A stretch of DNA of 64,000 bases, taken from NCBI GenBank assembly GCA_964611205.1, contig CAZSZB010000003.1, positions 23,764 to 87,763 on the forward strand, in the 5' to 3' direction. Below the pieces are notes generated by a model that worked only from the letters and a program-made list of their open reading frames with translations, did no database searches and was not told where the DNA came from. The stretch is from an uncultured Candidatus Saccharibacteria bacterium (GTDB lineage: Bacteria; Patescibacteriota; Minisyncoccia; Phycocordibacterales; UBA918). Positions 7,055 to 46,541 of this stretch are shown here, in pieces. Positions within the stretch are counted from its first letter, which is position 1. Every line of letters starts with the position of its first letter. The position numbers and the translations under genes are program-made.

Positions 7055-8242
7055 TTGTATAATGGGATGGTGAAAAGAACGATAATCATAACGATTGGTG
7101 CAATCACCATATTACTTATATTCACCGTTTGGTTATATTTGCTATTTTTTGGTGCCCCTGATGAAACTAATGATATTTTTACCAATCTTGGTTTTGCACC
7201 AGCTATGCAGGAAACTATTCCTGAAATGGTCCCTATTGAAGTAAAGACAGAACATACGGTAAATGTCGCTGAGGGCTTGCAACAGCTCACCACCAAGGCC
7301 GTAGCCGGTTTCATAGCTATCAAAGCTAGCACTTCCACTCCAACCATTGTCCGTTACGTAGAACAGGGAACTGGTTATATTTTCGACATAGATTTAAATA
7401 CCGGTGAAGAAAAGGTGATTAGTCAAAATACTTTTCCTAAAGTCAGACAAGCAGTATTTTCACCCGATGGACAAGCGGTTGCTTTAACAGCTGTTACTGG
7501 TTATGAAAGAAATACTTTTGTCGGCTTAATTGATACTGTTAATAACAAAATAACTGGTGAAAATATAATTCCTAATGCAAATAATATTCATTTACCTAAT
7601 AATCACAGTGTTAAATACACGGTGGAGTCTGAAGATAACCTGCTTGGCTACACCTACGATTTTGTAGCTGGAAAGTTACGACAAGAATTTGTAGTTCCTT
7701 TCCTGGCTGTTAAAGTGCTCTGGCAAGAGGACAATGAAACCTATCTATACAATAAACCGACCGCTGAGTTACCAGGCTACCTATACAAAATAAAAGCCGG
7801 GAGTTATGAAGCAACTGATATTCATGGCTACAGTCTAACTGTTGAAAATAACAGTCAATTTCTAGGCTATAGTTATCAACAAAATGGTTCTTACCAAACT
7901 AAGTTTAAAAGCATTAGCAGTGGTACAGAGTATGATTCACCGATTGTTTTGGTACCAGAAAAATGTGCTTTTTATAATAAAACTAACCTAACCCAGATGT
8001 GGTGCGCTAACCCAATCATCCCAACCAGTTTCGATATCACCAAATGGTATCAGGGCAAAATATCAACTTCAGATTATTTGTGGCAGGTATCAGTCCAGCA
8101 AAATCAAGCTGTCCTACTTAGTGATTTAGAGGCAGTTAGTGGTAGACCGATTGATGTGAAAGATCTTATGATTACGGGTGATGACACTCTCTTACTTTTC
8201 TCTAATAAACTTGATAATACTTTATGGAAATTCGACATCTAG
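7055..8242 (+). CDS. N-terminally membrane-anchored exported protein
   Basis: Single N-terminal TM helix followed by a large hydrophilic domain. Confidence 0.45.
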   Translation: MYNGMVKRTIIITIGAITILLIFTVWLYLLFFGAPDETNDIFTNLGFAPAMQETIPEMVPIEVKTEHTVNVAEGLQQLTTKAVAGFIAIKASTSTPTIVRYVEQGTGYIFDIDLNTGEEKVISQNTFPKVRQAVFSPDGQAVALTAVTGYERNTFVGLIDTVNNKITGENIIPNANNIHLPNNHSVKYTVESEDNLLGYTYDFVAGKLRQEFVVPFLAVKVLWQEDNETYLYNKPTAELPGYLYKIKAGSYEATDIHGYSLTVENNSQFLGYSYQQNGSYQTKFKSISSGTEYDSPIVLVPEKCAFYNKTNLTQMWCANPIIPTSFDITKWYQGKISTSDYLWQVSVQQNQAVLLSDLEAVSGRPIDVKDLMITGDDTLLLFSNKLDNTLWKFDI

Positions 8243-33191: not shown

Positions 33192-33259
33192 TTTTTGGCT
33201 CTAGACTTTGTGAAAGAAATTAGATAGTTTAAGTTGAACAAAAAAGAAGGAGTTCTTCA

Positions 33260-33532
33260 ATGGAAGCAGAAAAAGTCCAAGAGGTCATCCAGCTTTATCG
33301 TCGCGAGTTTGAGGCGACGGGTGTTGGTAAGACCAAATATCCTCACGGAAAGTCGTTGGATCAGTCCAGTCACAGCCTCGAGCATTGCCACGCTATGCTC
33401 GATGATATGGATGAATTCCTGAAGGAAGGTAGGACTGACAAAGTCTTCCGCTGGCTCGGTTTCATACAGGGAGTTCTTTGGGCCCAAGGCCTTTACTCAC
33501 TGACCGAATTGACCGGTCACAATCGCCCTTAG
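33260..33532 (+). CDS. hypothetical protein encoded in GC-rich (about 52%) DNA
   Basis: 90-aa ORF starting where GC content jumps relative to the ABC transporter gene. A hairpin terminator lies at about 33568-33600. Confidence 0.35.
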   Translation: MEAEKVQEVIQLYRREFEATGVGKTKYPHGKSLDQSSHSLEHCHAMLDDMDEFLKEGRTDKVFRWLGFIQGVLWAQGLYSLTELTGHNRP

Positions 33533-33777
33533 TTGGGAGGAAAAGACAGAAAGACAGTAAGATTTAAGGTCGTCCGATTTATCGGACGGCCTTTCTGGTT
33601 GGAGTTAATGGAAAGGGATTGCTTTGCTTTTTCTAATTCTTTACAGGAACTGTGTAGGTTAACTAATATTTTTCCTTCGTCAAAATATTAGTTAACCTCT
33701 CGAGAAAATGTGTAAACATTTTCTCTCCCCAACCCTCCCATGCGCGCACTGAACCATCTGAAAACAGATAGTCTTCC

Positions 33778-33807
33778 AAAAAAAACCACCAGTATGCACA
33801 CTGGTGG
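33778..33807 (-). terminator. rho-independent terminator on minus strand (ccaccagtgtgcatactggtgg + T8)
   Basis: Perfect 8-bp GC-rich stem followed by eight T on the minus strand. Confidence 0.55.
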
Positions 33808-33932
33808 CATTTTCGGTTCGTGTGTTGGCTTGCGGACAAGCCTTCAGGGACGTGTCCGCTCTGCGAGCGGAAAGGAACGGTGCTGGTGCATCAGCGTGTT
33901 GGACATCCATGTCCTGAACCGACGGGCTGGGC

Positions 33933-34052
33933 TCAGACGATGGTGTCGATGGCGGCGCAGTGGCTCGGGTAGCCAGCGGCTGGGTTGTTCGCGCCATTGG
34001 TCATCAGCTCGACGGGACCGGCACGAACGGTGGTGAGTGCGAAGCGTTTCAT
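33933..34052 (-). CDS. candidate 39-aa micro-ORF in about 60% GC DNA with consensus Shine-Dalgarno
   Basis: AAGGAG sits 6 nt upstream of the ATG. Hand translation gives MKRFALTTVRAGPVELMTNGANNPAAGYPSHCAAIDTIV, followed about 120 nt downstream by the strong terminator. Confidence 0.25.
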   Translation of the reverse strand: MKRFALTTVRAGPVELMTNGANNPAAGYPSHCAAIDTIV

Positions 34053-34177
34053 CGCAGTCTCCTTGTCCGAGTGTGAAGGAAGTCACACGCTCATTGGCCA
34101 GATAATACTGACCTCTATAGCTAAAAGTAGTAGATTTTGTTTTTTTTCAAGTGAGAAGTGAAGAGAAAAGTGAAAAT

Positions 34178-34195
34178 TGGCGGAGAGGGATTCTC
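34178..34195. repeat. partial copy of tRNA-Ser 3' end (ttggcggagag..ggattc), candidate attL
   Basis: Matches 46295-46305 exactly (11 nt) plus a further 6 nt after a 4-nt gap. It has the same orientation as the tRNA gene. Confidence 0.35.
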
Positions 34196-34465
34196 TCGTT
34201 ACACGAGCAGTATACCTTTTGCATCAGATTACTTCGCAAGCTCATAATCTGACGCAAAAGCTTTCGAATCCCCACAGAAGTGACACTGAGTCACTTCTTC
34301 TCTCTCCACCAACAAAATAGCACCCCAAAAAGGGTGCTATTTTGTACTCGCGGGCTACGTGGGTTAAGTACCCACACGTTCAAGCCTTGTAAGGGTATTC
34401 TAGCGCATTTTGGGTATGCGAATCTAGGTACGTGGGTCGGGGTCTAAGAGTAGACAAAGTAGACA

Positions 34466-34912
34466 CTAATAGCGACTTCGGCGGTATCGCTTCTTTCGCC
34501 TGCCTCCAGGCTCTTTAAGGTAAACCCAGAAGCCAGTGAGATTAAGGAGTATCCCAGAGCAAAGGAAGATAAGTAAGTGAAGTGCAAGTGGCCACTTCAA
34601 GCAATAGACAAAGTTGCCGAAGATCGTGGTGAAGATGAGGAATGTCAGGGTCTGCAATCCAAGGTATGTCCCGCTTCCGACAAAGCGGTTGAATGTCGGC
34701 GAGAAGCCGTTGTCGGAATTGTAATGGGCGGTGCCGTTGCGGGTGTAAATCTCCCAAGCTACCCACCCGATCATGGCAAGAATGATCCAGACGAAATGCC
34801 ACGGCCACAGATACTTGATCGCAGTCCAGAGAAAATCGGAAAGCGAAGAAACCGCCATATCCGATACGGTTGAGCAGATTTCTCCAAATGAAAATATTGT
34901 TTGTGGATCCAT
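34466..34912 (-). CDS. hypothetical polytopic membrane protein with Arg/Lys-rich C-terminus
   Basis: 148-aa ORF, hydrophobic, in the island. Confidence 0.35.
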   Translation of the reverse strand: MDPQTIFSFGEICSTVSDMAVSSLSDFLWTAIKYLWPWHFVWIILAMIGWVAWEIYTRNGTAHYNSDNGFSPTFNRFVGSGTYLGLQTLTFLIFTTIFGNFVYCLKWPLALHLLIFLCSGILLNLTGFWVYLKEPGGRRKKRYRRSRY

Positions 34913-35308
34913 GTCTTTGACACCTCGGTTCTGGGAAATGCCCCGACCTCGGCGTTTCTTATCTTCTCGCTAATCGTCAATTTACACTATTGACACTGTG
35001 GATAAATACTTGTTTGATTTTTAATACGGAAGTGCATATAATTCACTCAGTTCTTCACAGATGAAACTACCTTCTCCCTCGGGAGAGGCAGTCCGATCGC
35101 ATAGGTCATCGACCAAAAAAAATATGCGTGAGGGTTGTCGAATGGAGTGCGTATTGAACGAATCGTTGTCGGGTCCATTGTGGCAAAAAGACAGCTGTTC
35201 GAGATCGCAGTCGAAGGCACACCAAGCATCACGCTTGCTGTTTCTTTGAGTGCGATTTTTTGTTTGTAGAAAATCAAAACTCTCCGTGCAGAACTAATTA
35301 TCAATTAT

Positions 35309-36652
35309 TTGAAATTAGTTATGACCAATCACAACCACACATTAGAAATCCAATACGTCGCAGTCGGTGACCTCAAGGAGAACGAATACAACCCGAAGAA
35401 GTTCTCAGCGGAGGCTTTGGACGGCATCAGAGAAAGCGTTACCCGTTTCGGGTTCGCAGATCCATTGGTAGTTAACAGCAACGAAGAGCGGAAAAACATT
35501 CTCATCGGAGGACATGCACGCCTCAAGATCGCCAAGGAGCTCGGCTTCGAGACCGTACCAGTCGTCTTCGTTAATCTGAGTGAAGACAAGGAAAAGGAAC
35601 TCAACCTCCGTCTCCACAGGAACCAAGGAGCGTTCGACTTGGAACTGCTCGCAAAGTTCGACGAGACGCTTCTTGCGGACATCGGATTCAACTCGGAGGA
35701 TCTCGATTCGATCTTCAACATGGACCCGACACCCGAGCACTTCGACCTCAAGAAGGAACTTGAGAAGTTGAATATCAAGGACGTGAAGGTAAAGCACGGA
35801 GACCGATACGAGATCGACGGCTCGATCCTCATGTGCGGAGACAGCACCATCGAGGAAGACATGCTCAAGCTCATGCAGGGAGCAAAAGCCGACATGGTGA
35901 TGACCGATCCTCCTTACATTCTCGACTACCTCAAGGGTAAGACGAAGAACAAGGACGGGATCACGGAAGGCTTCGGTGCGAAGAAGAACCGCGTCTATCT
36001 CGGCACCACTTCCTTGCCCGACAACTTCACCGACCTCTGGATGAACGGCGTGTCCAAGGTTCAGAAGGAGGACTTCTCGATCGTCATCTTCGAGCATCCG
36101 AAGAATCTCCGCACCATCTGGAACGCACTTGAGAAGCACTGGAAGTATCGCAACACCATCACATGGCACGTGCCAAACCGCATGCAGGGATTCGCTGGGA
36201 AGTACAAGCTTTTCAACAAGCAGGACATCGCACTTGTAGGAAGCACCGACCGAGTGATCGTTAATCTCGAGCCAGAGGATGAGCTGTTCCAGAACGAGTA
36301 CGAGAATGCCATTTATGCCACGAGCGGAAGACCGCATTGGGAAAGCTACGGCAAAGGAAAGAAGAACTGCCCGACGGACTTCATCGAGCACATCGCCGCA
36401 GACAAGAAGTCCTCTGGTCAGGACATCATATTTGGCACGAAGCCGATAGAGCTTCTCATCCCGTACATCAAGGTACTCACGAAGCGTGACGACTTGGTGC
36501 TCGAGCCGTTCGGAGGATCGGGATCAACGCTCATCGCATCGCTGAAGATCGGACGCAAGTGCCGCATCATGGAGAAGCAGCCGATCTATGCGGAGGTCAT
36601 TATCAAACGCTGGGAGAAAGCGACCGGCAAGAAGGCGGTGAAGATAGACTAG
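35309..36652 (+). CDS. ParB-like nuclease domain fused to N4/N6 DNA methyltransferase (beta-class)
   Basis: N-terminal ParB/Srx motif (ILIGGHARLKIAKELG). Motif IV VMTDPPY comes before motif I LEPFGGSGST. Confidence 0.8.
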   Translation: MKLVMTNHNHTLEIQYVAVGDLKENEYNPKKFSAEALDGIRESVTRFGFADPLVVNSNEERKNILIGGHARLKIAKELGFETVPVVFVNLSEDKEKELNLRLHRNQGAFDLELLAKFDETLLADIGFNSEDLDSIFNMDPTPEHFDLKKELEKLNIKDVKVKHGDRYEIDGSILMCGDSTIEEDMLKLMQGAKADMVMTDPPYILDYLKGKTKNKDGITEGFGAKKNRVYLGTTSLPDNFTDLWMNGVSKVQKEDFSIVIFEHPKNLRTIWNALEKHWKYRNTITWHVPNRMQGFAGKYKLFNKQDIALVGSTDRVIVNLEPEDELFQNEYENAIYATSGRPHWESYGKGKKNCPTDFIEHIAADKKSSGQDIIFGTKPIELLIPYIKVLTKRDDLVLEPFGGSGSTLIASLKIGRKCRIMEKQPIYAEVIIKRWEKATGKKAVKID

Positions 36653-36653
36653 T

Positions 36654-37229
36654 ATGGCAAAGCAGAAAGAAGCGGTCGCTACCGCACAGCTGAAGCACAA
36701 GCTCGTACAGCACCTACGGGACATCCCGATCCCGACATATGCGTGCCAGCGGGTCGGCGTTCCCAAAGCCACCTACTACAAGTGGCGGAAGACAGACCAG
36801 ATATTCCGTGAAGCGAGCGACGAGGCGATCATCACGGGAAAGCTCACACTTAATGATGTTGCTAAGTCCCAGCTCGTGAAGCTCATCAAGGAGGGAGACT
36901 ATCGCTCGATCAACTTCTGGCTGAAGCACAACGACGAGGACTTCGGATCGAAGCTCAAGCTTGAGATCGAGGACAGGACGAGAAAGTACGACCCCGAAGA
37001 ACTCAAACTCATGGCGACAGCGATGCATAATGCAGGATTGGTCGGCGTTACACTCGCTCACCAAAAGATGGCGAAGGTGTTTCAGGGATTGCAGGAAAAG
37101 GAAGAAGAGCGAGCCAACGAGAAGAACGAATACGACGAGGATGAAGAACCTGTCGTTCAGGAAAAACAGAAGCGAAAAGGCGGAGTGAAGATTGCAGAGT
37201 TTATGAAGAAGAGGAAGTCTGAGGAATAA
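36654..37229 (+). CDS. HTH DNA-binding protein, phage terminase small subunit-like
   Basis: N-terminal HTH (ACQRVGVPKATYYKWRK), and charged helices downstream. It is translationally coupled to the ParB-MTase. Confidence 0.4.
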   Translation: MAKQKEAVATAQLKHKLVQHLRDIPIPTYACQRVGVPKATYYKWRKTDQIFREASDEAIITGKLTLNDVAKSQLVKLIKEGDYRSINFWLKHNDEDFGSKLKLEIEDRTRKYDPEELKLMATAMHNAGLVGVTLAHQKMAKVFQGLQEKEEERANEKNEYDEDEEPVVQEKQKRKGGVKIAEFMKKRKSEE

Positions 37230-37659
37230 GTCGCCTCAGCACCTCTCCCGTGAGGATGCGGTGCTTCTTGAAGGCGTTGCACCGCTTGCATGCAAGCGTC
37301 AGGTTTCTCGGGTGGTTGGAGCCGAAGCTTTGTGGTTCGACTTTCACACCCGACACGCCTTTCATCTTACGAAGCTCCTTGTTCAGGACATTCGATGACA
37401 GCGGAATGATGTGGTCGGGTTCGAAGATTCCATCGTTGGTGCACTCAGGGTGAATGCTTAACTGGCATTCGCCTTTGTGCTTTTCGATGAGTTCATGCAA
37501 TACCTTCTTGCTGGTCTTGTCGAATTGCCACCGCTTGATTGCAGGATGCTGAAAATCAAAGAGATCGGAATATTCTTTGTTGAAATACTCTAGGTCTCCG
37601 TCTGCAAGCAGGTGTACGAAAAAATCCTGATCCTCAGGATTTTCAAACTGCATTCGCAA
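37201..37659 (-). CDS. HNH endonuclease
   Basis: A CxxC ... H-N-H core (EPDHIIPLS..NHPRNLTLACKRCNAFKKHR). Confidence 0.8.
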   Translation of the reverse strand: MRMQFENPEDQDFFVHLLADGDLEYFNKEYSDLFDFQHPAIKRWQFDKTSKKVLHELIEKHKGECQLSIHPECTNDGIFEPDHIIPLSSNVLNKELRKMKGVSGVKVEPQSFGSNHPRNLTLACKRCNAFKKHRILTGEVLRRLIPQTSSSS

Positions 37660-38002
37660 TGAAGATGAAAAGGACTATGGCGGTAAAGACAACTAAACCG
37701 ATGAGTACCTTTTCGCTTCGAGTATAGATTCGAGCAGGTTCTTTTTCAGCCAGAGCCTGCTCGAGTGTTTTGCCTTGGTCAGCCAAGAGCTTCTGTCCGA
37801 TTGGAGAATCCAACGGAATCAGATTGGTCGCACCACAGGCGGAGCACTTCTTGTACCTTGATGACGATCGCCACACCGAATATATGAGACCCGGAATGAT
37901 GAAGAAGCACCAGAGGATTATTTCTATTAAAAGGTTTCCCTTAACGGCAGTTTTGGAACTGCCAATATGCCCACAAGCGGAGCATATGAGTTTCTTAGAC
38001 AT
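37643..38002 (-). CDS. zinc-ribbon (2x CxxC) membrane protein
   Basis: CSACGH..CSACG pairs flank a TM helix, with a second TM at the C-terminus. It overlaps the HNH start by 17 nt. Confidence 0.4.
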   Translation of the reverse strand: MSKKLICSACGHIGSSKTAVKGNLLIEIILWCFFIIPGLIYSVWRSSSRYKKCSACGATNLIPLDSPIGQKLLADQGKTLEQALAEKEPARIYTRSEKVLIGLVVFTAIVLFIFIANAV

Positions 38003-38227
38003 GTTTTTTGGACGGTTTTCATGACGCTAATAATTCTGGTAGGTAGCAAAAATCTCCTAACCAGGGCTGATATATCCCGTGAGATATACCCATACCCCTT
38101 TCGGGATATGACCGTCCAAAGTGGCCTCTGATTAGGAGGTTTTTACTTTGGACGGAATTTGCGACCATATCCTAGAAAACCAAGGGTTCTTTAGGGGTTA
38201 GGTCGACTGTATTCAGTTGTATGTACA

Positions 38228-38250
38228 TGATACCAAAATTGATGGTATCA
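38228..38250. promoter_or_regulatory. palindrome tgatacca-N7-tggtatca upstream of the putative restriction endonuclease gene
   Basis: 8-bp perfect arms, about 80 bp upstream of the 38330 start. Confidence 0.3.
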
Positions 38251-38329
38251 GTCAGTACCTTAGCTTAGTTATTGGGTCTTGCGAAGGGCTTCATAAAGGC
38301 TTGATAAATTGCTAGAATGAGGCGTAACC

Positions 38330-39397
38330 ATGGCAGTATCCGCTCAAAAAGTAAGCAAGTATGTCGATTCCATTTCCAAGAGCGGTCTTAGCATCTATGA
38401 CCCTATTGAAGTCGGAGATCCAAATCTTTGGATACCTTCAGGAGAACTGGAGGTTATTTTGAATGAGGCTTTAAAAGGTCTCTCCCTTACAGGTCTGCCC
38501 CTAAGAACACGATCAAAAGTTGTGAAGCAGAAAGTATGCTCTGCTTTGGGCTATCCTGTGCCAAATAGTTTTGAGAAAACACAGCCACGTTTCCCAGGAC
38601 AGTGCTTCGATACTTATATTCAGAAATCAAACAACTTGCAGATTTGGAACGAAGAACTTTCATCAACCCGACGATACGTAACGATCAAAGTAACCGACGA
38701 AGACGTGGTTGAAGTTGTACGTGTCGTAACTGGAGACACTCTTGCTGTACTTGATACAACAGGCACCCTCACTCAGAAATACCAAGCTCGACTTACAGTC
38801 GGTGATAATGTGTCAGAACTTGTATCTGCGGAGGATACTGACCGAATCGTTGCGATAATCGAATCTGCAAACGGTGATCAAAAGCTTGGTGATCCCACAG
38901 ATCATGTATCAGCTGAAAACATTCTTCCTATCGAAGATGTATTTGAAAAACTTAAGACAATAATCGGAAAGTCTTTTGCTGACGCTGGTTCTGATCAAGA
39001 AAGGAATCGAGGTGGACTACTCCACAAACTAGTGTGTCATGCATTGGGTTATGAAATACATCGAGACAACGGACAGTTTCCTGATGTACCGAATCAATTA
39101 CTTGAAGTAAAGCTTCAAACTTCTCCAACTATTGATCTTGGCTTGGTTACACCCGACAGTAAGGACGCATTGGATACGCCTAAAATCAACGGGAAGCAGA
39201 TACGTCACTGCGACGTTCGCTATGCAATCTTTTATGCCAACATCGAGAACGGACAAATTAATGTCACCAACCTTTTTCTATCAACAGGAAAAGATTTCTT
39301 TAGTCGTTTCCCTCGCTTTGAAGGAAAGGTACTTAATAAGAAAATTCAGATACCCCTTCCGTCAGATTTTTTCACCTATAAGCCGAAGGCTGAATAG
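38330..39397 (+). CDS. putative type II restriction endonuclease (PD-(D/E)xK-like)
   Basis: Convergent and overlapping by 22 bp with the N6-adenine MTase gene. It has a candidate catalytic HRDNGQFPDVPNQLLEVKLQT segment (D..EVK). Confidence 0.45.
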   Translation: MAVSAQKVSKYVDSISKSGLSIYDPIEVGDPNLWIPSGELEVILNEALKGLSLTGLPLRTRSKVVKQKVCSALGYPVPNSFEKTQPRFPGQCFDTYIQKSNNLQIWNEELSSTRRYVTIKVTDEDVVEVVRVVTGDTLAVLDTTGTLTQKYQARLTVGDNVSELVSAEDTDRIVAIIESANGDQKLGDPTDHVSAENILPIEDVFEKLKTIIGKSFADAGSDQERNRGGLLHKLVCHALGYEIHRDNGQFPDVPNQLLEVKLQTSPTIDLGLVTPDSKDALDTPKINGKQIRHCDVRYAIFYANIENGQINVTNLFLSTGKDFFSRFPRFEGKVLNKKIQIPLPSDFFTYKPKAE

Positions 39398-41070
39398 ACA
39401 AGTTTGTTTAGCTTCTCCTCCTGAGAATCAAATTCAGCATCTACAGGCAACTCGTAGATTGATTTAGTTAAGTTGATGATCTCTTTTGCTATCTTTGATT
39501 TTGGATCAGGCAATGGAAACTTCTCAACGTATTGAGTAATAAAGCGTCTTCGTCCCGAGTAGAGTTTATTGTTGAAACTGTGGTCGTAGAACTCCTCGAC
39601 AAACTTTGAGTTTGCAATTGCCAAAGCGAGCCACAGCAATTCGGAATTATCTTCTTCTGAAGTTAACCAGTAGCAGTCTCCATTCACCACACCGCCTGTT
39701 TGATCCATCCAAAAGATTGGTTGTTCAGAAATATCTCTGAAGACTAACTTGGGCTTCTCCCAAGTCTTTGGATTATGAGGAACCCAGATCTCGTACCAGT
39801 TACGTCCTGAATCAATCACGTAACTTCTCGATGAGAGCTGATCTTTGTGTTCTTCAAGATACCTTTTTACGTTGGGATACTGATCAAGATCAATGGGCTT
39901 CTTTTTGTTGCCGATTTCCTCATGTGTGTAAACAACATGCTTCTTTGCTGAATCTGTTTTGTATCTTCTTGCGACGTGATGAGTAATCAGTGGCTTTAGA
40001 GTTTCAGGTAGGTTTCCATTAAATTTAGAAATGTCGGATACGATAAAAACATTGTCAGCAGTCGTTTTGATACCAACTTTTACCTTGCCAATATCCCCAA
40101 ATAAAAGTTGAGTCTTTTCTTTAACTTTCTTCAACCACAGGTCTGCTTTGTCATGAGCAAGCCTCCATGTGTCGCCGATCTTATTGCCAATATCAAGCTT
40201 GCCGTGCAGTACTTTAAAATGTTCCGATTCCTCTCCTTCGAGTGATTGAAAGACTTGTTGTGGATCAATCTTTGTATTCTTTCCCGAAAGATATATTGAT
40301 GTGAATCTAGGGTCAGCATCCTTTGATGTCTCTTTTTGCAAAAGCAGAACAGCTGGAAGCACTGCCGCTTCAAACAAGCGTGTATCTCCTAAATCCCATA
40401 CATGTAGAACACTAAAATCATTTAGGAGATTCTTTCGAACAGCTTCGCCTGATTTAGTGGTAAGAAAGCGATTGGAAACAATGATACCTACTACACCTTC
40501 TGGCTTAAGAAGTTTCTCAATTCCTTTTAGGAAAGCGTGATACAGATCAACTCGACCTGAGAGATTAAAATCTTCCGCAAGCTTTTGAGCCTTTTCAGCA
40601 CCCATGACTTGAGTTCTGACATAAGGCGGATTCGCAATAACAAGATCAAAGAGTGGAACATCTGTTTTTGAAAACAAAGAACCTCCATAAGTTTCAGAGA
40701 CCCATTCTAAGAAATCCTGAGTTTTAATATCAGCCTTAACTTCAGGGAAATCCTTCTTGATTAGATCCAGAGAAGCATCAACTGCATCTTGATTAATATC
40801 GAAACCGAATACTTCGATTTTATTGAATCCGCGCGAGTAGGCTATCTGTATAAGATTACGCAGAAGCTCCCCGTCACCAACAGCAGGATCAATTACTTTT
40901 AGTGTTTTGGTTTTCTTTAAATTCTTTTTCTCAACTTGATCAAAGATTTGAGATGCCACAAAGCCAGCCAAAGAAGTTGGGGTGTAATGAGCCCCTGTAT
41001 TCTTTCTTAATCCAGCATCGAGTTGTGCATCTAAAGTTGGCATTTGTAAACCTATTTTAACATTTTTCAA
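39376..41070 (-). CDS. N6-adenine DNA methyltransferase, gamma-class (Eco57I/TaqI-like) with C-terminal target-recognition half
   Basis: A TGAHYTP segment, motif I VIDPAVGDGELL and motif IV VIANPPY. 564 aa. Confidence 0.85.
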   Translation of the reverse strand: MKNVKIGLQMPTLDAQLDAGLRKNTGAHYTPTSLAGFVASQIFDQVEKKNLKKTKTLKVIDPAVGDGELLRNLIQIAYSRGFNKIEVFGFDINQDAVDASLDLIKKDFPEVKADIKTQDFLEWVSETYGGSLFSKTDVPLFDLVIANPPYVRTQVMGAEKAQKLAEDFNLSGRVDLYHAFLKGIEKLLKPEGVVGIIVSNRFLTTKSGEAVRKNLLNDFSVLHVWDLGDTRLFEAAVLPAVLLLQKETSKDADPRFTSIYLSGKNTKIDPQQVFQSLEGEESEHFKVLHGKLDIGNKIGDTWRLAHDKADLWLKKVKEKTQLLFGDIGKVKVGIKTTADNVFIVSDISKFNGNLPETLKPLITHHVARRYKTDSAKKHVVYTHEEIGNKKKPIDLDQYPNVKRYLEEHKDQLSSRSYVIDSGRNWYEIWVPHNPKTWEKPKLVFRDISEQPIFWMDQTGGVVNGDCYWLTSEEDNSELLWLALAIANSKFVEEFYDHSFNNKLYSGRRRFITQYVEKFPLPDPKSKIAKEIINLTKSIYELPVDAEFDSQEEKLNKLVYSAFGL

Positions 41071-41111
41071 GATCGCTTGATACCTTAGCTTAGACCTGAA
41101 AAATTGTGTAA

Positions 41112-41507
41112 TTGGTTACCAGATTGACCCTTTGCAGACCTCTGGACTTATTTGCAGTTCAGCGTCATTCCTTGGGTGTGGATGAAGATATCGAGGCAAT
41201 TATTGATGCGAGTAAGCATTTCAAATACCACGAGGAGCGTGGGATGACCCTCTTTAATCGCGTCTCTCATCTACCCGAATCAAAGCGACACATGAAGATG
41301 GCAATTAAGGAACGCATACTCTTCTTGGCAGGTGCTTATATATCTCTTGCGTCATTCATTGATGATGACCTCGTGGATTTCTTAGAGAACGCTGACAATG
41401 AATCAGATAAAGAAAAAATAAAGAGAATTTATAGCGATGTAATCAAACAGATGGATACTCTACGTAAGGAGATGGAAGAATTCAAAATCATAGACTTACC
41501 AACCTAA
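41112..41507 (+). CDS. hypothetical protein upstream of the recombinase (true start probably internal)
   Basis: ORF with a charged helical C-terminus. Confidence 0.3.
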   Translation: MVTRLTLCRPLDLFAVQRHSLGVDEDIEAIIDASKHFKYHEERGMTLFNRVSHLPESKRHMKMAIKERILFLAGAYISLASFIDDDLVDFLENADNESDKEKIKRIYSDVIKQMDTLRKEMEEFKIIDLPT

Positions 41508-41541
41508 GGGTACTTAGGACGCTCTGGACTCTTCAAAGGGA

Positions 41542-42882
41542 TTGCGTCATTCATTGGGTTGTATGAATAACGCAATATCAATGCCGTACGGGACAACGGT
41601 ACAAGAGCAAGTCCCTGTAAAGGTGAAGTACTGCCTTTATGCGAGAAAGTCGACAGAATCGGAGGAGCGACAAGTGCTGTCCATAGATAGCCAGATCAAG
41701 GAGATGCTCCAGCTCGCGGATCGAGAATGTTTAGAGATTGTGGAGATGAAGCGAGAGTCACACTCTGCAAAAGAGACAGGTCAGCGACCAGTCTTCAATG
41801 AAATAATCGAGGAGATACGAGAAGGAAAATACAACGGTATCCTGACATGGGCACCAGACCGTATTTCAAGAAACGCAGGTGACCTTGGAAGGATTGTAGA
41901 CCTGATGGATTCGGGCAAGCTTGAGGAAATACGAACTTTTGGTCAGAAGTTCGGCAACAATCCAAACGAGAAGTTTCTCCTGATGATTCTGGGGTCACAA
42001 GCAAAGCTTGAGAACGACAATCGAGGAATCAACGTGAAGCGAGGTCTGCGAACGAGAGCGGAGATGGGGCTATGGTCAGGCATGCCTCCTCTCGGGTACG
42101 TGACGCAGGGACTAATGGAAAAGAAATGTCAGGTAGCGGTAGATCCGCTACGAGCACCAACAGTGAAGAAGATGTTTGAGAAAGTTGCATACGAACAATG
42201 GTCTGGGCGAAAGGTATACAACTGGCTGAGGTTTGAGCTGAACTTCTACACCAGAGGAAACAAACCACTCACTCTCGGAGGTGTGTATCGCATATTAGAA
42301 AACCCTTTCTACTATGGAGTGTTCGAGAGACCAAAGAAGAGCGGAAACTGGTATCAAGGAAAGCACACGCCACTCATCACGCAGGAACTGTTCGAGAAAG
42401 CAAAGGCACAGCTTAAGCGTGACCAGATAGTGCGAGAGACGAAGGAGTTCGCATTCACTAAGCTCTTCACCTGCGGGTACTGCGGAAGCGGGATATCCGC
42501 CGAAGAGAAATGGAAACAGCTCAAGGATGGCGGCGTGAACAGATACATCTACTACTCCTGTGCCAGATCAAGAGACCGCAACTGCAAGAACATGTACATA
42601 CGAGAAGAAGATTTGATACTCGAACTACTGAAAATACTCGACAAAGTGAACATCAACGAGCTTGGCATGCGAAAGAAACTGGAGGATGAGATTGCGAGGT
42701 TCAATATATTCCAAAGGTCGGTACTCGGCGCCAAAGAAAAGATAAAGACGGATGCAGAGACAGATATCAGGAACTATGCGAAGTACATCCTAAAAGAAGG
42801 GTCTACTACTGAAAAACGAGAGCTATTGGCTAACCTGAGATCACGAATTGAATACAAAGATAAGAACCTAAGGCTCGTCTAG
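41542..42882 (+). CDS. large serine recombinase (resolvase catalytic domain + recombinase domain + zinc ribbon)
   Basis: YARKSTESEERQ catalytic Ser motif, a recombinase domain, and CGYCGS..YYSC zinc-ribbon cysteines. Confidence 0.85.
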   Translation: MRHSLGCMNNAISMPYGTTVQEQVPVKVKYCLYARKSTESEERQVLSIDSQIKEMLQLADRECLEIVEMKRESHSAKETGQRPVFNEIIEEIREGKYNGILTWAPDRISRNAGDLGRIVDLMDSGKLEEIRTFGQKFGNNPNEKFLLMILGSQAKLENDNRGINVKRGLRTRAEMGLWSGMPPLGYVTQGLMEKKCQVAVDPLRAPTVKKMFEKVAYEQWSGRKVYNWLRFELNFYTRGNKPLTLGGVYRILENPFYYGVFERPKKSGNWYQGKHTPLITQELFEKAKAQLKRDQIVRETKEFAFTKLFTCGYCGSGISAEEKWKQLKDGGVNRYIYYSCARSRDRNCKNMYIREEDLILELLKILDKVNINELGMRKKLEDEIARFNIFQRSVLGAKEKIKTDAETDIRNYAKYILKEGSTTEKRELLANLRSRIEYKDKNLRLV

Positions 42883-42962
42883 ACAGAATAGATGGGTTGT
42901 TGCAAAAGTGTTAAAATAGAGGCGTAACATGAAATCCAAATTTCACCTTACGAGAACATTGC

Positions 42963-45900
42963 ATGAGCCCAAATACCGCTCCACAACCAAACACGCTCAT
43001 TCTCCCAATCTTAGAATTGGGGCCTATTAGGCATGATCTCGGACAGATAAGGCATGTTTTGGATCTTGGCGGGAGCAAAGAGATAGTATCAACAGAAGAT
43101 TTCAATACTTCGCCTAGAGTTGTAGAAAAGCTACACGTACTCTCTGACGGACAAAGAGTATTGGTAACAAAGAAAAAGAAACTCCAGCTACCTGTCGATG
43201 TGGACGGAGTGCTTCATCGTAACGAAGAAGGAGAACTAAAGTGGGTTGCTCATAGAAAACTGGAAGCGATAGAACAGGATATTGCTCGAGACGGGATAGA
43301 AAGTGTCGCATCTGAAATAGCTGAAAGCTGGTCTGGGAAATTTAACTTTCGTGCAGAAGAGCGAGATGCTTCAGGAAACATCACTAAGGCAGGACTGAGA
43401 CCTCCACAAATCGGTGGACTTCATGCGATTGGTGCTCACTGGAGTCTCTACCAGCAACCTGCGACGGTTGTAATGCCCACTGGTACAGGAAAGACAGAAA
43501 CGATGTTGGCAACTCTCGTGGCATATTCACCAGGTAGCTTGCTTGTAGTGGTTCCCTCAAAAGTACTTCGGGATCAAACCGCAAGAAAATTTCTAACGTT
43601 AGGATTGCTTCGTTCTCTCGGTAATATTTCTCCAGAAACAAAAAATCCAATTGTTGGAGTAATCAAAAAGAGACCTCAGTCAGAACAAGATCTGGATATT
43701 TTTGATAAATGCAATGTCGTTATTGCAACCATGAGTGCCATGGGTGGCGAAGCATCCGATGACATATCCCTTCCTGTTGCCGACCATGCCAAAACACTGA
43801 TCGTCGACGAAGCACATCACATTGGAGCAAATGGATGGAGTGCTTTTCGAGAAAAATTTAAGGAAAACAAGGTTTTACAATTTACAGCAACCCCCTATCG
43901 AAGAGACGGAAAGCTTGTCGATGGAAAGGTTATTTATGAGTATCCTCTACACTCAGCCCAGAAAGACGGATATTTCAAAAATATCAACTTCGAGCCCGTA
44001 TATGAGATTGATCAAGAAGATGCGGATGAAGCAATAGCCACAAAGGCAGTAGAAGTGCTCAGAAGCGATATTGAGTCTGGAATGGACCATCTCATGATGG
44101 CAAGATGTGTGAGCATTGGTCGGGCAAGGACAATACATGCTATTTACAGCAGGATCGCTCCTGACCTGAACCCTGTTCTAATACATTCAGAGGCTGACGA
44201 AGCCGATGCTTCTATTGAGCTCATAAAATCTCGTGGAAGTCGTATTGCAGTTTGCGTAAATATGCTCGGAGAAGGTTTTGATTTGCCTCAACTTAAAATT
44301 GCAGCTGTCCACGATGCTCATAAAAGCCTTGCTATCCTTTTGCAATTTACGGGTAGATTCACTCGAAGTTCAGGAGAAGCAATTGGTGATGCGACTGTCG
44401 TGGCAAATATCGCAGATCAGGATGTCTCCTCATCGCTTGAACGTCTTTACAGTGAGGATGCGGATTGGAATCAATTGTTAAGTGAATTTAGCTCCGAAGC
44501 AGCAAAAGCCCATTCAGAGCTTATTGCCTTTTTGAATTCATCCGAAAGGCTTGATGACCCAGAAGATGAAGAGAAGATCGAAATATCCCACCATCTATTT
44601 CGCCCTACCTTCAGCACACTAATGTACGAAGCAGATTCTTTCACTCCTAAAAAATTCATCGAAGGAATTCCCAAAGGAACGACTGTGCACAATGTCTGGA
44701 TTCACGAAGAATCCAAAACCCTCTATTTTGTAACAAGACTAGAACCATCCATTCGTTGGACAAGATCACGCAAACTAAAGGATAGGACATGGGATTTGCA
44801 CGTTTTTCATTATGACGAAGCGCGCCACATGTTGTTCGTGTCCTCGAGTGACAAGTCCTCAGCGCATGAAAAAATTGCCAAGGCCATTGGTGCCACACGA
44901 CTCATTTCTGGTGACGTTATTTTCCGAGCACTAGGACGAATCAATAGACTTATCTTTCAGAACGTGGGAGTAACCAAGCATGGCCGTCGAAACCTGAGGT
45001 ATGCAATGTATACAGGTTCTGATGTTGCTACAGCGTTGAGTGTGTCTGAACGAGCTGGTTCAGTTAAATCAAACCTAAGTGGTACTGGTTGGGAAAATGG
45101 TGAACCTGTCACAATCGGATGCTCCTACAAAGGACGTGTGTGGGCTAGAGATCCTGGATCAATACCTGAACTCGTAAAATGGTGTGAAGCTGTTGGCGAT
45201 AAAATTAAAGATGAAGGAATAGACACGGCAGATATTATTGCCAACGTTCTTATCCCCGAAGAAGTAACAGCATTGCCAGATAAACAGGTACTCAGCATTG
45301 AGTGGCCTCTGGAAATTATCAGACAGTCGGAAGAAAGAGTGGTTATCAAGAAAGGAGCTGTTGAGAGATCAATTTCAATGTTTGATCTTCAATTCGTTAA
45401 AACTGATCTGGTAACCAGTCAGGTTGAATTTAATCTTGTCACAGATCCTGAGGAGGTTTGGGCAAAATTAGTTCTGACAGTGGGTGGCGATGACGGATTC
45501 AAAGTCACAAAAAGCACAAGAGAAGCTGTAACAATTCGTGTTGGGAATTTGGAACTTCCAATCGAGGAGTATTTTTCAAATTACCCTCCGATGATTCGCT
45601 TCATAGATATTTCTGAGCTTGACGGCAACTTACTCATTAAGCCGCAAAACACTCAAGACCTTGTGTTTCCTGAAGAAAGTTTTGAGGTCTGGGACTGGGA
45701 AGGAGTCGACATGCAAAAGGAGTCTATTTGGAAAGGTGGTAATGAACGTCAGGACTCAATCCAATGGAAAGCGGCTCAGCAGTTTATTGCTGGAAACTTC
45801 GATGTGGTCTTTGATGATGACAGTGCGGGAGAAGCTGCTGATCTTGTCTGTTTTAAGGAAGAAGATGATCATATACGGTTAGCTTTGGTGCATTGTAAAT

Positions 45901-46256
45901 TCACAAAAGGTACAACCGCAGGTGAGCGAGTAAGTGACGTTGTGGAAGTTTCATCTCAAGCGGTTCGATCAGCAAAATGGAAATGGAAATTTAAAGATTT
46001 GTGCCGACACGTTCTTGAAAGAGAGAAGAGGCTTTCTGGTGGTCGCACAACTAGATTCCTCAAAGGAATTGGATCAGATATGAATAGGTTCGTGAAGTTG
46101 AGCAGATTCAAGGAAATTAGACCAGAGATCATTATCGTTCAACCTGGCTTATCAAAGGCTAATCACACGGCAGATCAGACAGCCGTATTAGCAGCAGCTC
46201 ATAGCTATCTCAAGGAGACAGTCGGAGTTGATCTTGATGTTATTTGTAGCGAATAA
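42963..46256 (+). CDS. 1097-aa SF2 (DEAH / ResIII-type) helicase with roughly 600-aa C-terminal extension carrying a possible degenerate nuclease-like motif
   Basis: Q-like motif LRPPQ, Walker A MPTGTGKTET, DEAH box LIVDEAHH and motif VI QFTGRFTR. The C-terminal segment FDVVFDDD..ADLVCFK..ALVHCKFT is PD-(D/E)xK-like but not canonical. Confidence 0.8.
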   Translation: MSPNTAPQPNTLILPILELGPIRHDLGQIRHVLDLGGSKEIVSTEDFNTSPRVVEKLHVLSDGQRVLVTKKKKLQLPVDVDGVLHRNEEGELKWVAHRKLEAIEQDIARDGIESVASEIAESWSGKFNFRAEERDASGNITKAGLRPPQIGGLHAIGAHWSLYQQPATVVMPTGTGKTETMLATLVAYSPGSLLVVVPSKVLRDQTARKFLTLGLLRSLGNISPETKNPIVGVIKKRPQSEQDLDIFDKCNVVIATMSAMGGEASDDISLPVADHAKTLIVDEAHHIGANGWSAFREKFKENKVLQFTATPYRRDGKLVDGKVIYEYPLHSAQKDGYFKNINFEPVYEIDQEDADEAIATKAVEVLRSDIESGMDHLMMARCVSIGRARTIHAIYSRIAPDLNPVLIHSEADEADASIELIKSRGSRIAVCVNMLGEGFDLPQLKIAAVHDAHKSLAILLQFTGRFTRSSGEAIGDATVVANIADQDVSSSLERLYSEDADWNQLLSEFSSEAAKAHSELIAFLNSSERLDDPEDEEKIEISHHLFRPTFSTLMYEADSFTPKKFIEGIPKGTTVHNVWIHEESKTLYFVTRLEPSIRWTRSRKLKDRTWDLHVFHYDEARHMLFVSSSDKSSAHEKIAKAIGATRLISGDVIFRALGRINRLIFQNVGVTKHGRRNLRYAMYTGSDVATALSVSERAGSVKSNLSGTGWENGEPVTIGCSYKGRVWARDPGSIPELVKWCEAVGDKIKDEGIDTADIIANVLIPEEVTALPDKQVLSIEWPLEIIRQSEERVVIKKGAVERSISMFDLQFVKTDLVTSQVEFNLVTDPEEVWAKLVLTVGGDDGFKVTKSTREAVTIRVGNLELPIEEYFSNYPPMIRFIDISELDGNLLIKPQNTQDLVFPEESFEVWDWEGVDMQKESIWKGGNERQDSIQWKAAQQFIAGNFDVVFDDDSAGEAADLVCFKEEDDHIRLALVHCKFTKGTTAGERVSDVVEVSSQAVRSAKWKWKFKDLCRHVLEREKRLSGGRTTRFLKGIGSDMNRFVKLSRFKEIRPEIIIVQPGLSKANHTADQTAVLAAAHSYLKETVGVDLDVICSE

Positions 46257-46295
46257 CCCGAGCCCCATTCAAGGGTACTCGGGTCACTCCGATAC

Positions 46296-46385
46296 TTAGT
46301 TCTCTTGGCGGAGAGAGAGGGATTCGAACCCTCGGTACGCGTAAACGTACAACGGTTTTCAAGACCGCCGCCTTCAACCACTCAG
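46296..46385 (-). tRNA. tRNA-Ser (anticodon TGA), long variable arm, CCA encoded
   Basis: Hand-folded: GGAGAGA acceptor, GCTGAGTGGTTGAAGGC D-arm, anticodon loop CUUGAAA, long extra arm, and a GGTTCGAATCC T-loop. Confidence 0.9.
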
Positions 46386-46541
46386 CCATCTCTCCAGATA
46401 TTAAATTGTTGCGGTAAACGATTGTTATCAGTTCAACCAGCTTACCACCGCATGCTTAATCCTTGATAAGGATTGTGACCAGGATATTACCAGAAAAAAA
46501 GCTTTTTTCCAACTATATTTTCATCGTGTTATGATTATCGA

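Follow-up and report, generated by a model that had tools for sequence, protein, structure and literature searches.

A convergent ClaI/BseCI/BanIII-type restriction-modification gene pair, probably specific for ATCGAT, on a phage-derived island of a Patescibacteria-like genome

Results

We analyzed a stretch of 64,000 nucleotides (nt) of an uncultured Candidatus Saccharibacteria bacterium (contig CAZSZB010000003.1 of assembly GCA_964611205.1), hereafter the window, and focused on two convergent genes at 38-41 kb (Table 1) that the initial annotation had proposed to form a type II restriction-modification (R-M) pair with a 22-bp overlap. The gene on the plus strand (R) starts with ATG and encodes a protein of 355 amino acids (aa); the one on the minus strand (M) encodes a DNA methyltransferase (MTase). 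The open reading frame (ORF) of M comprises 564 aa when it is read from the TTG at 41070 and 555 aa when it is read from the ATG at 41043, and we favor the ATG as the probable start, a choice on which public gene calls made on the identical sequence and the alignment of relatives agree; the N-terminus that it generates, MPTLD, is conserved as MP(T/V)LD. Both the ORF list and the sequence confirm the convergent arrangement and the overlap, and the separate, adjacent genes for endonuclease and MTase are those of a type IIP system. Based on the sequence comparisons presented below, the pair very probably constitutes an intact R-M system of type IIP that belongs to the ClaI/BseCI/BanIII family and whose MTase most likely methylates the N6 position of adenine in ATCGAT and whose endonuclease would cut this sequence when it is unmethylated.

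The assignment of M to the gamma class of N6-adenine MTases holds. The motif order, DPAVGDG (motif I, residues 61-67), NPPY (motif IV, residues 147-150) and then the recognition domain, is the gamma arrangement, and Pfam detects an Eco57I/N6_Mtase domain (residues 22-255) and a TaqI_C specificity domain (residues 369-520). A sequence search of the PDB retrieved M.BseCI (entries 7qw5-7qw8), the MTase that generates N6-methyladenine in ATCGAT. The two enzymes have the same architecture and align end to end (residues 21-563 on 12-573; E 3e-132), with 43% identity over 538 aligned residues (7qw5) and 45% in the recognition domain. M is thus a full-length homologue of a characterized ATCGAT MTase. 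It also matches the PADLOC model MTase_II PDLC03226 (E 2e-193).

The 355-aa protein is matched over its whole length by the PADLOC model REase_II PDLC03565 (E 1.9e-151); like the model that matches M at full length, it is a REBASE-derived type II model. A large protein collection contains 4080 homologues from many phyla, several of which are named 'restriction endonuclease' by their source and the best 120 of which are 61-86% identical, and a library clustered at 50% contains 478 cluster representatives at E ≤0.001. In an alignment of 51 sequences of 61-86% identity, the residues E224, P251, D252, E259 and K261 are invariant, and so is D246. Because of this invariance we consider P251-D252-x6-E259-V-K261, which has a MutH-like spacing, to be the canonical motif. 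The sequence ...RDNGQFPDVPNQLLEVKLQ... does occur in the protein. Thus, the segment that the initial annotation had flagged as the core of a PD-(D/E)xK nuclease does hold invariant, catalytic-looking residues, but it should be read as PD-x6-EVK, not as D246-x12-EVK. A confident AlphaFold2 model based on the 51-sequence alignment (predicted local distance difference test score 86, predicted template modeling score 0.85) contains the alpha-beta-beta-beta-alpha-beta core of the PD-(D/E)xK fold, in which E224, D252, E259 and K261 would cluster in space. A Foldseek search of the PDB with this model gave no significant match, the best being Sau3AI (E 0.009), with MutH and HincII near E 0.5. The endonuclease has no detectable sequence similarity to MutH, Sau3AI or other PD-(D/E)xK nucleases, and it differs from MutH and Sau3AI by an extra N-terminal domain of about 200 residues that has no assigned relative.

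A scan of one genome per species yielded 80 loci with a gene homologous to R, spread over more than 15 phyla; their products have 52-73% identity to the window protein. An MTase homologue is convergent with, and directly 3' of, the R gene in 75 of them, and in 44 of these 75 the two genes overlap by 17-30 nt (most commonly 27 nt, and also 24 or 21 nt). The exceptions are three loci of Bacillales (L018, L026 and L057), which differ from the window in that their MTase gene lies upstream; L066, where a partial MTase match is found upstream in the same direction as R; and L080, which has no MTase match. Since the convergent, overlapping layout is seen in 75 of the 80 loci, the 22-bp overlap is a trait of the family and not due to chance. 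No intrinsic terminator fits between R and M, and convergent transcription with antisense overlap is therefore expected; a terminator-like hairpin is present on the plus strand about 350 nt inside the M gene.

Table 1. Features of the R-M locus and of the island that carries it (window coordinates)
Feature	Position	Strand	Remarks
Restriction endonuclease gene (R), ClaI/BseCI/BanIII-type	38330..39397	+	355 aa; invariant E224, P251-D252, E259-x-K261
Gamma-class N6-adenine DNA methyltransferase gene (M), TaqI_C-type target-recognition domain	39376..41043	-	Pfam, M.BseCI, PADLOC
Overlap of both 3' coding ends	39376..39397		22 bp; no intergenic terminator
Promoter-like site of endonuclease gene	38290..38318	+	TTCATA-17-TAGAAT, TG extension TGCTAGAAT (38310-38318), ends 11 nt before ATG; promoter scan
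Extended -10-like box TGTTAAAAT of methyltransferase gene	41054..41062	-	10 nt before ATG; sequence reading; conserved in L083
Palindrome TGATACCA-AAATTGA-TGGTATCA	38228..38250		LOOT RNA promoter has its extended -10 (TGGTATCAT) in the 3' arm read on the minus strand; not part of R-M
LOOT RNA gene (Rfam RF03000)	38069..38204	-	divergent from R; context, not an R-M component
Left module copy TACCTTAGCTTAG...CTTGCGAAGG	38256..38288	+	truncated here, complete in L083; holds 13-nt direct repeat 38256-38268
Right module copy TACCTTAGCTTAG-N21-GTTACCAGA	41081..41123	+	far side of MTase gene; brackets the R-M cassette with the left copy
ParB_N + N6_N4_Mtase fusion (beta-class, DPPY)	35309-36652	+	Pfam
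Small-terminase-like helix-turn-helix protein	36654-37229		after ParB-MTase
HNH endonuclease gene	37201-37659	-	
131-aa ORF, no family match	41112-41507	+	directly upstream of serine recombinase
1097-aa ResIII/DEAD-box helicase	42963-46256	+	between serine recombinase and tRNA-Ser; large uncharacterised C-terminal half

Two homologous R-M loci bear on the specificity. The first is encoded by the megaplasmid of Shewanella oneidensis MR-1 and consists of SO_RS22145 (controller protein), SO_RS22150 (endonuclease, 59.5% identical) and SO_RS22155 (MTase, 46% identical). As in the window, its R and M genes are convergent; unlike the window pair, they are separated by a gap of 4 nt instead of overlapping, have a helix-turn-helix (HTH) controller gene upstream and are borne by a plasmid and not by an island. 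ATCGAT is methylated in MR-1 (PMC12838424; bioRxiv 10.1101/2023.11.13.566931), and a 2014 paper cited in PMC12838424 states in its title that removal of a ClaI site improved transformation. The second is a homologous locus containing R, controller and M genes (L026). It is present in Aneurinibacillus aneurinilyticus, the source of BanIII (ATCGAT).

The distribution of the putative target points in the same direction. The observed/expected ratio of ATCGAT is 0.62 in the 946 kb of pooled sequence around R homologues, which ranks it fifth of the 64 palindromic hexamers, and 0.84 (rank 47 of 64) in 525 kb of related loci that lack the R-M genes. The window as a whole shows no clear avoidance; a stretch of 20.5 kb (29900-50445) that contains the island and the R-M cassette is free of ATCGAT, all 15 sites lying outside it, a gap of borderline significance (p about 0.05 by a rough gap calculation).

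R-M systems of the PvuII, AhdI and Esp1396I type are controlled by a C protein, and this is also the case in most of the family studied here. In 54 of the 80 loci an HTH ORF of 75-90 aa with a controller-protein signature (..HRTYIGSVERGERN..; SQEELA..CGLHRTYIGSVERGERNVTLSTLE) overlaps the start of R, and the C gene of these relatives is preceded by C-boxes (GACT/AGTC), for instance AAGTCTGTAGACTT or, in L026, ACTTATAGTCTGTCGAC; one relative (P0103) encodes a C-R fusion. The window lacks both gene and boxes. Firstly, the 327-nt spacer upstream of R (38003-38329) contains no HTH-like ORF of at least 20 aa. Secondly, no C-box precedes R in the window, where the sole palindrome is TGATACCA-N7-TGGTATCA. 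C gene and C-boxes are likewise missing from the nearest relatives (L083, L084, L085 and L002).

Promoter-like sequences were found close to both start codons (Table 1). The motif TGyTAGnnT is kept at the equivalent place upstream of R in L083 and L085. Given the small distance between these boxes and the start codons, the leaders of the R and M transcripts may be very short or absent.

The spacer upstream of R contains the gene for a LOOT RNA, which is, to our knowledge, an orphan small RNA motif known only from metagenomes. It lies between R and a gene for a 119-aa membrane protein, and it scores 73.4 bits (gathering threshold 46.4; E 1.4e-12) over model positions 1-121 of 121. LOOT and R-M genes are similarly arranged in L083 (LOOT at 7718-7850) and L085 (7732-7856). 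With a pattern based on these three RNAs we found four further confirmed loci on viral contigs of IMG/VR (L088, L094, L096 and L098), as well as 80 metagenomic loci (L099-L178) that were accepted on the basis of the pattern match and a span of 96-122 nt, not by a scan with the Rfam model. Homologues of the ParB-MTase, the small-terminase-like protein or the serine recombinase of the island are encoded at 30 of the 80 metagenomic loci, and at 19 of the 25 loci of at least 8 kb. It therefore seems that LOOT forms part of a family of integrative, phage-like elements, which probably belong to Patescibacteria.

The palindrome with arms of 8 bp that the initial annotation had reported is indeed present (Table 1), although its role appears to be different. 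We aligned the 125 nt preceding LOOT from 81 distinct loci. A -10-like box about 30 nt before LOOT is conserved, and 38 of the 81 loci have it in the extended form, with TG (TGnTAnnAT). The window version of this box, TGGTATCAT, coincides with the minus-strand arm of the palindrome, and the promoter scan likewise reports a minus-strand site at 38255-38227. In 28 of the 81 loci, one arm of an exact inverted repeat of 5 bp or more falls on the LOOT -10 box, against 12% in shuffled sequences, and the arms covary, so that the palindrome is not due to chance; in L143, which lacks R-M genes, the palindrome is nearly identical to that of the window. Because one arm lies on the -10 box and covarying counterparts exist in LOOT loci without R-M genes, the palindrome can be assigned to the promoter region of LOOT. 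A check for an intrinsic terminator found no run of T residues after the palindrome on either strand in the window; TTTTT follows the L083 version. In addition, a TACAACTGAAT box follows the conserved extended -10 box upstream of LOOT.

On either side of the R-M cassette lies one copy of a module of about 45 nt, composed of CCTTAGCTTAG, then TTGCGAAG or TTGTGTAG, and then GTTAyCAACA. The perfect 13-mer TACCTTAGCTTAG is present in both copies (38256-38268 and 41081-41093), and the window contains no other mismatch-free copy of it. Loci without R-M genes have the module once, beside the LOOT promoter, and in such loci, for example L103, L137, L141 and L166, it is directly followed by the recombinase gene, with or without a homologue of the 131-aa ORF; the window, L083 and L085 have it twice, flanking the R-M genes. 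The copies within a locus are 60-68% identical, and left copies of different loci are equally alike, as are right copies. We read this as a probable single, old insertion of the R-M cassette into the spacer between LOOT and recombinase, accompanied by duplication of the target module. Since the copies are only 60-68% identical and no closer to each other within a locus, the insertion must be old, and constraint on the motif probably accounts for the perfect 13-mer. A fresh target-site duplication was considered as the origin of the 13-nt repeat and was rejected, as the longer module is only 60% identical and the motif is kept in loci lacking R-M genes. The arrangement resembles R-M units flanked by long direct repeats, which the Kobayashi group reportedly described as 'insertion with long target duplication'; those units are likewise bracketed by two copies, but the copies in the window have diverged with age.

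The R-M cassette is cargo of an integrative, phage-derived island in a Patescibacteria-like genome. Between 33 and 47 kb of the window, the guanine-cytosine (GC) content is 0.42-0.54, up from about 0.39. A tRNA-Ser gene is located at 46306-46395, and its 3' end recurs in degenerate form at 34177-34205, which marks the left border. These features delimit an island of about 12 kb (~34177-46304) at tRNA-Ser. A Logan contig from another run (L001) equals window positions 34416-46304 exactly, and the fact that it breaks precisely at these two positions suggests heterogeneity of the population or mobility of the island. The island is flanked by chromosomal genes (RuvX, PilM/PilN, a P-type ATPase and an ABC transporter), and the closest named relatives of PilM come from Pacebacteria and Nomurabacteria. 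Besides the membrane protein gene, LOOT and the R-M genes, the island carries genes for a ParB-N6/N4 MTase, an HTH small-terminase-like protein, an HNH protein, the 131-aa ORF, a large serine recombinase and a ResIII/DEAD helicase of 1097 aa. Because relatives such as L083 still have a large terminase, it looks like a reduced form of a phage-derived element.

In the case of the ParB-MTase, Pfam confirmed the predicted fusion, whereas the suggestion of layered methylation on the island stands only in part: the gene belongs to the conserved backbone of the elements, many of which have a copy without having R-M genes. We prefer to regard it as an orphan MTase carried by the element and not as a partner of the R-M pair. 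Together with the genes for the small-terminase-like protein and the HNH protein it forms a trio typical of phage packaging regions, with 55-71% identity in many LOOT elements devoid of R-M genes. The 131-aa ORF has a 37%-identical homologue at the equal position in L103, and may encode a recombination directionality factor or a regulator. We rejected it as a candidate controller protein, as this homologue precedes the recombinase gene of a locus that has no R-M genes. The 1097-aa helicase gave weak PADLOC matches only (PbeA, E 3e-14), has a homologue beside the recombinase on the P0002 contig, and may be a stand-alone defense gene or an element-replication gene. Between the ABC transporter gene and the left border of the island, a region of about 1.2 kb (33234-34400; raised GC of about 0.475) contains only short, overlapping ORFs of low quality. 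Finally, L085 (1555-2877 and 10904-12187; 3435-4565 and 12851-13906) contains two large serine recombinase genes that flank a block with the LOOT-R-M unit, an SduA_C (Shedu-like) gene and a GmrSD_N gene, and this block looks like a small defense island derived from tandem integrative elements.

Discussion

The results presented above identify the two convergent genes as a member of a widespread R-M family, and ATCGAT as the likely recognition sequence; the position of cleavage is likewise inferred. Several observations nevertheless weigh against this interpretation. Searches of Pfam, NCBIfam and the PDB with the sequence of the 355-aa protein returned nothing meaningful. The window shows no significant avoidance of ATCGAT (15 sites observed versus about 20 expected), and an MTase that is only 43-46% identical to characterized ATCGAT enzymes may possibly have changed its specificity. 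Moreover, the proposed promoters and leaderless messages are only matches to consensus sequences. Based on the missing avoidance and on the low identity of the MTase (43% with M.BseCI, 46% with its MR-1 homologue), one might argue that the genes form a functional type II pair of this family that recognizes another sequence. We consider this unlikely, however. The endonuclease family is unusually uniform, with 52-76% identity over more than 15 phyla, and is almost always paired with the same MTase family; the recognition domain aligns with that of M.BseCI without rearrangement; and ATCGAT is depleted around the members of the family.

If the pair is indeed an ATCGAT-specific system, the MTase would methylate the N6 of adenine on both strands of this palindrome, and the endonuclease, presumably as a homodimer, would cut unmethylated ATCGAT in incoming DNA. 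As part of the island, the cassette might act both in defense and as a stabilizing addiction module, through post-segregational killing. Most relatives time the endonuclease by means of the C protein, which the lineage of the window has either lost or never had. Owing to the tail-to-tail overlap, R and M each need a promoter of their own, and their two transcripts must collide. The extended -10 boxes, 10-11 nt from each start codon, would drive the two genes separately. Since there is no C protein, control would rest on promoter strength, possibly on leaderless translation, and on convergent transcription.

The position of the cassette raises the question of whether its surroundings contribute to this control. 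It could be imagined that the R-M system of this C-less lineage is built into the LOOT locus of a phage-like integrative element of Patescibacteria, such that timing or silencing of the endonuclease involves LOOT, the palindrome of its promoter and the two copies of the module of about 45 nt, or that the module is a recombination site by which the cassette moves between elements. If true, this would provide the first functional context for the orphan class of LOOT RNAs, but we regard it as quite improbable. None of the other 84 LOOT loci (80 metagenomic and four viral) carries the R-M cassette, and we therefore reject a specific association of the two. LOOT loci devoid of R-M genes, R-M relatives devoid of LOOT and modules of 60-68% identity together indicate that a single old insertion beside LOOT explains why the two are adjacent.

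A narrower proposal, made in the initial annotation, sees in the palindrome a possible operator of the endonuclease gene, at which a regulator would act. The palindrome is indeed located only 80 nt upstream of the start of R, in a family in which palindromic operators, the C-boxes, are usual. On the other hand, its sequence is unlike the GACT/AGTC C-boxes, so that it was rejected as one, and no C or HTH gene is present upstream of R. In addition, one of its arms is the conserved extended -10 box of the divergent LOOT gene, it has counterparts in LOOT loci that lack R-M genes (e.g., L094, L096, L137, L141, L143 and L144), and the promoter-like box of R lies 60 nt further downstream. An operator function in R-M control is, thus, very unlikely. 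We assign the palindrome and the ParB-MTase to the mobile element around the cassette and not to the R-M system itself; the tail-to-tail overlap is a feature of the R-M family.

It is equally hard to sustain that the pair is a decaying remnant on a degraded prophage, with R or M inactive. Although the island does lack the large-terminase and structural genes that relatives such as L083 retain, both ORFs are full length with respect to the PADLOC family models, the endonuclease keeps every residue that is invariant across the 51 homologues, and a second data set yielded an independent assembly of the identical cassette (L001). Finally, the idea that the LOOT RNA, located where relatives have their C gene, has taken over the control of R-M by acting in trans or in cis on R or M draws on its position directly upstream of R in three diverged elements without C gene (the window, L083 and L085), but there is scarcely any likelihood left for it in view of the 80 metagenomic and four viral LOOT loci without R-M genes and of close C-less R-M relatives (L084 and L002) that have no LOOT.

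The missing C protein and the position in the LOOT locus are the only departures from a textbook case, and we do not claim functional consequences for either. As an R-M system, the pair is one more member of the ClaI/BseCI type, here in a host of the candidate phyla radiation, and the barrier that it would form at ATCGAT sites is relevant only for transforming such organisms or infecting them with phages. The endonuclease family, on the other hand, counts thousands of members and shows a clear PD-x6-ExK signature, yet it has neither a Pfam or NCBIfam model nor a solved structure, and LOOT RNA emerges as a recurrent part of integrative or phage-like elements with a serine recombinase and a ParB-MTase. 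With respect to the family as a whole, a C-less sub-lineage within a normally C-controlled family may offer a natural comparison for studying the timing of R-M establishment.

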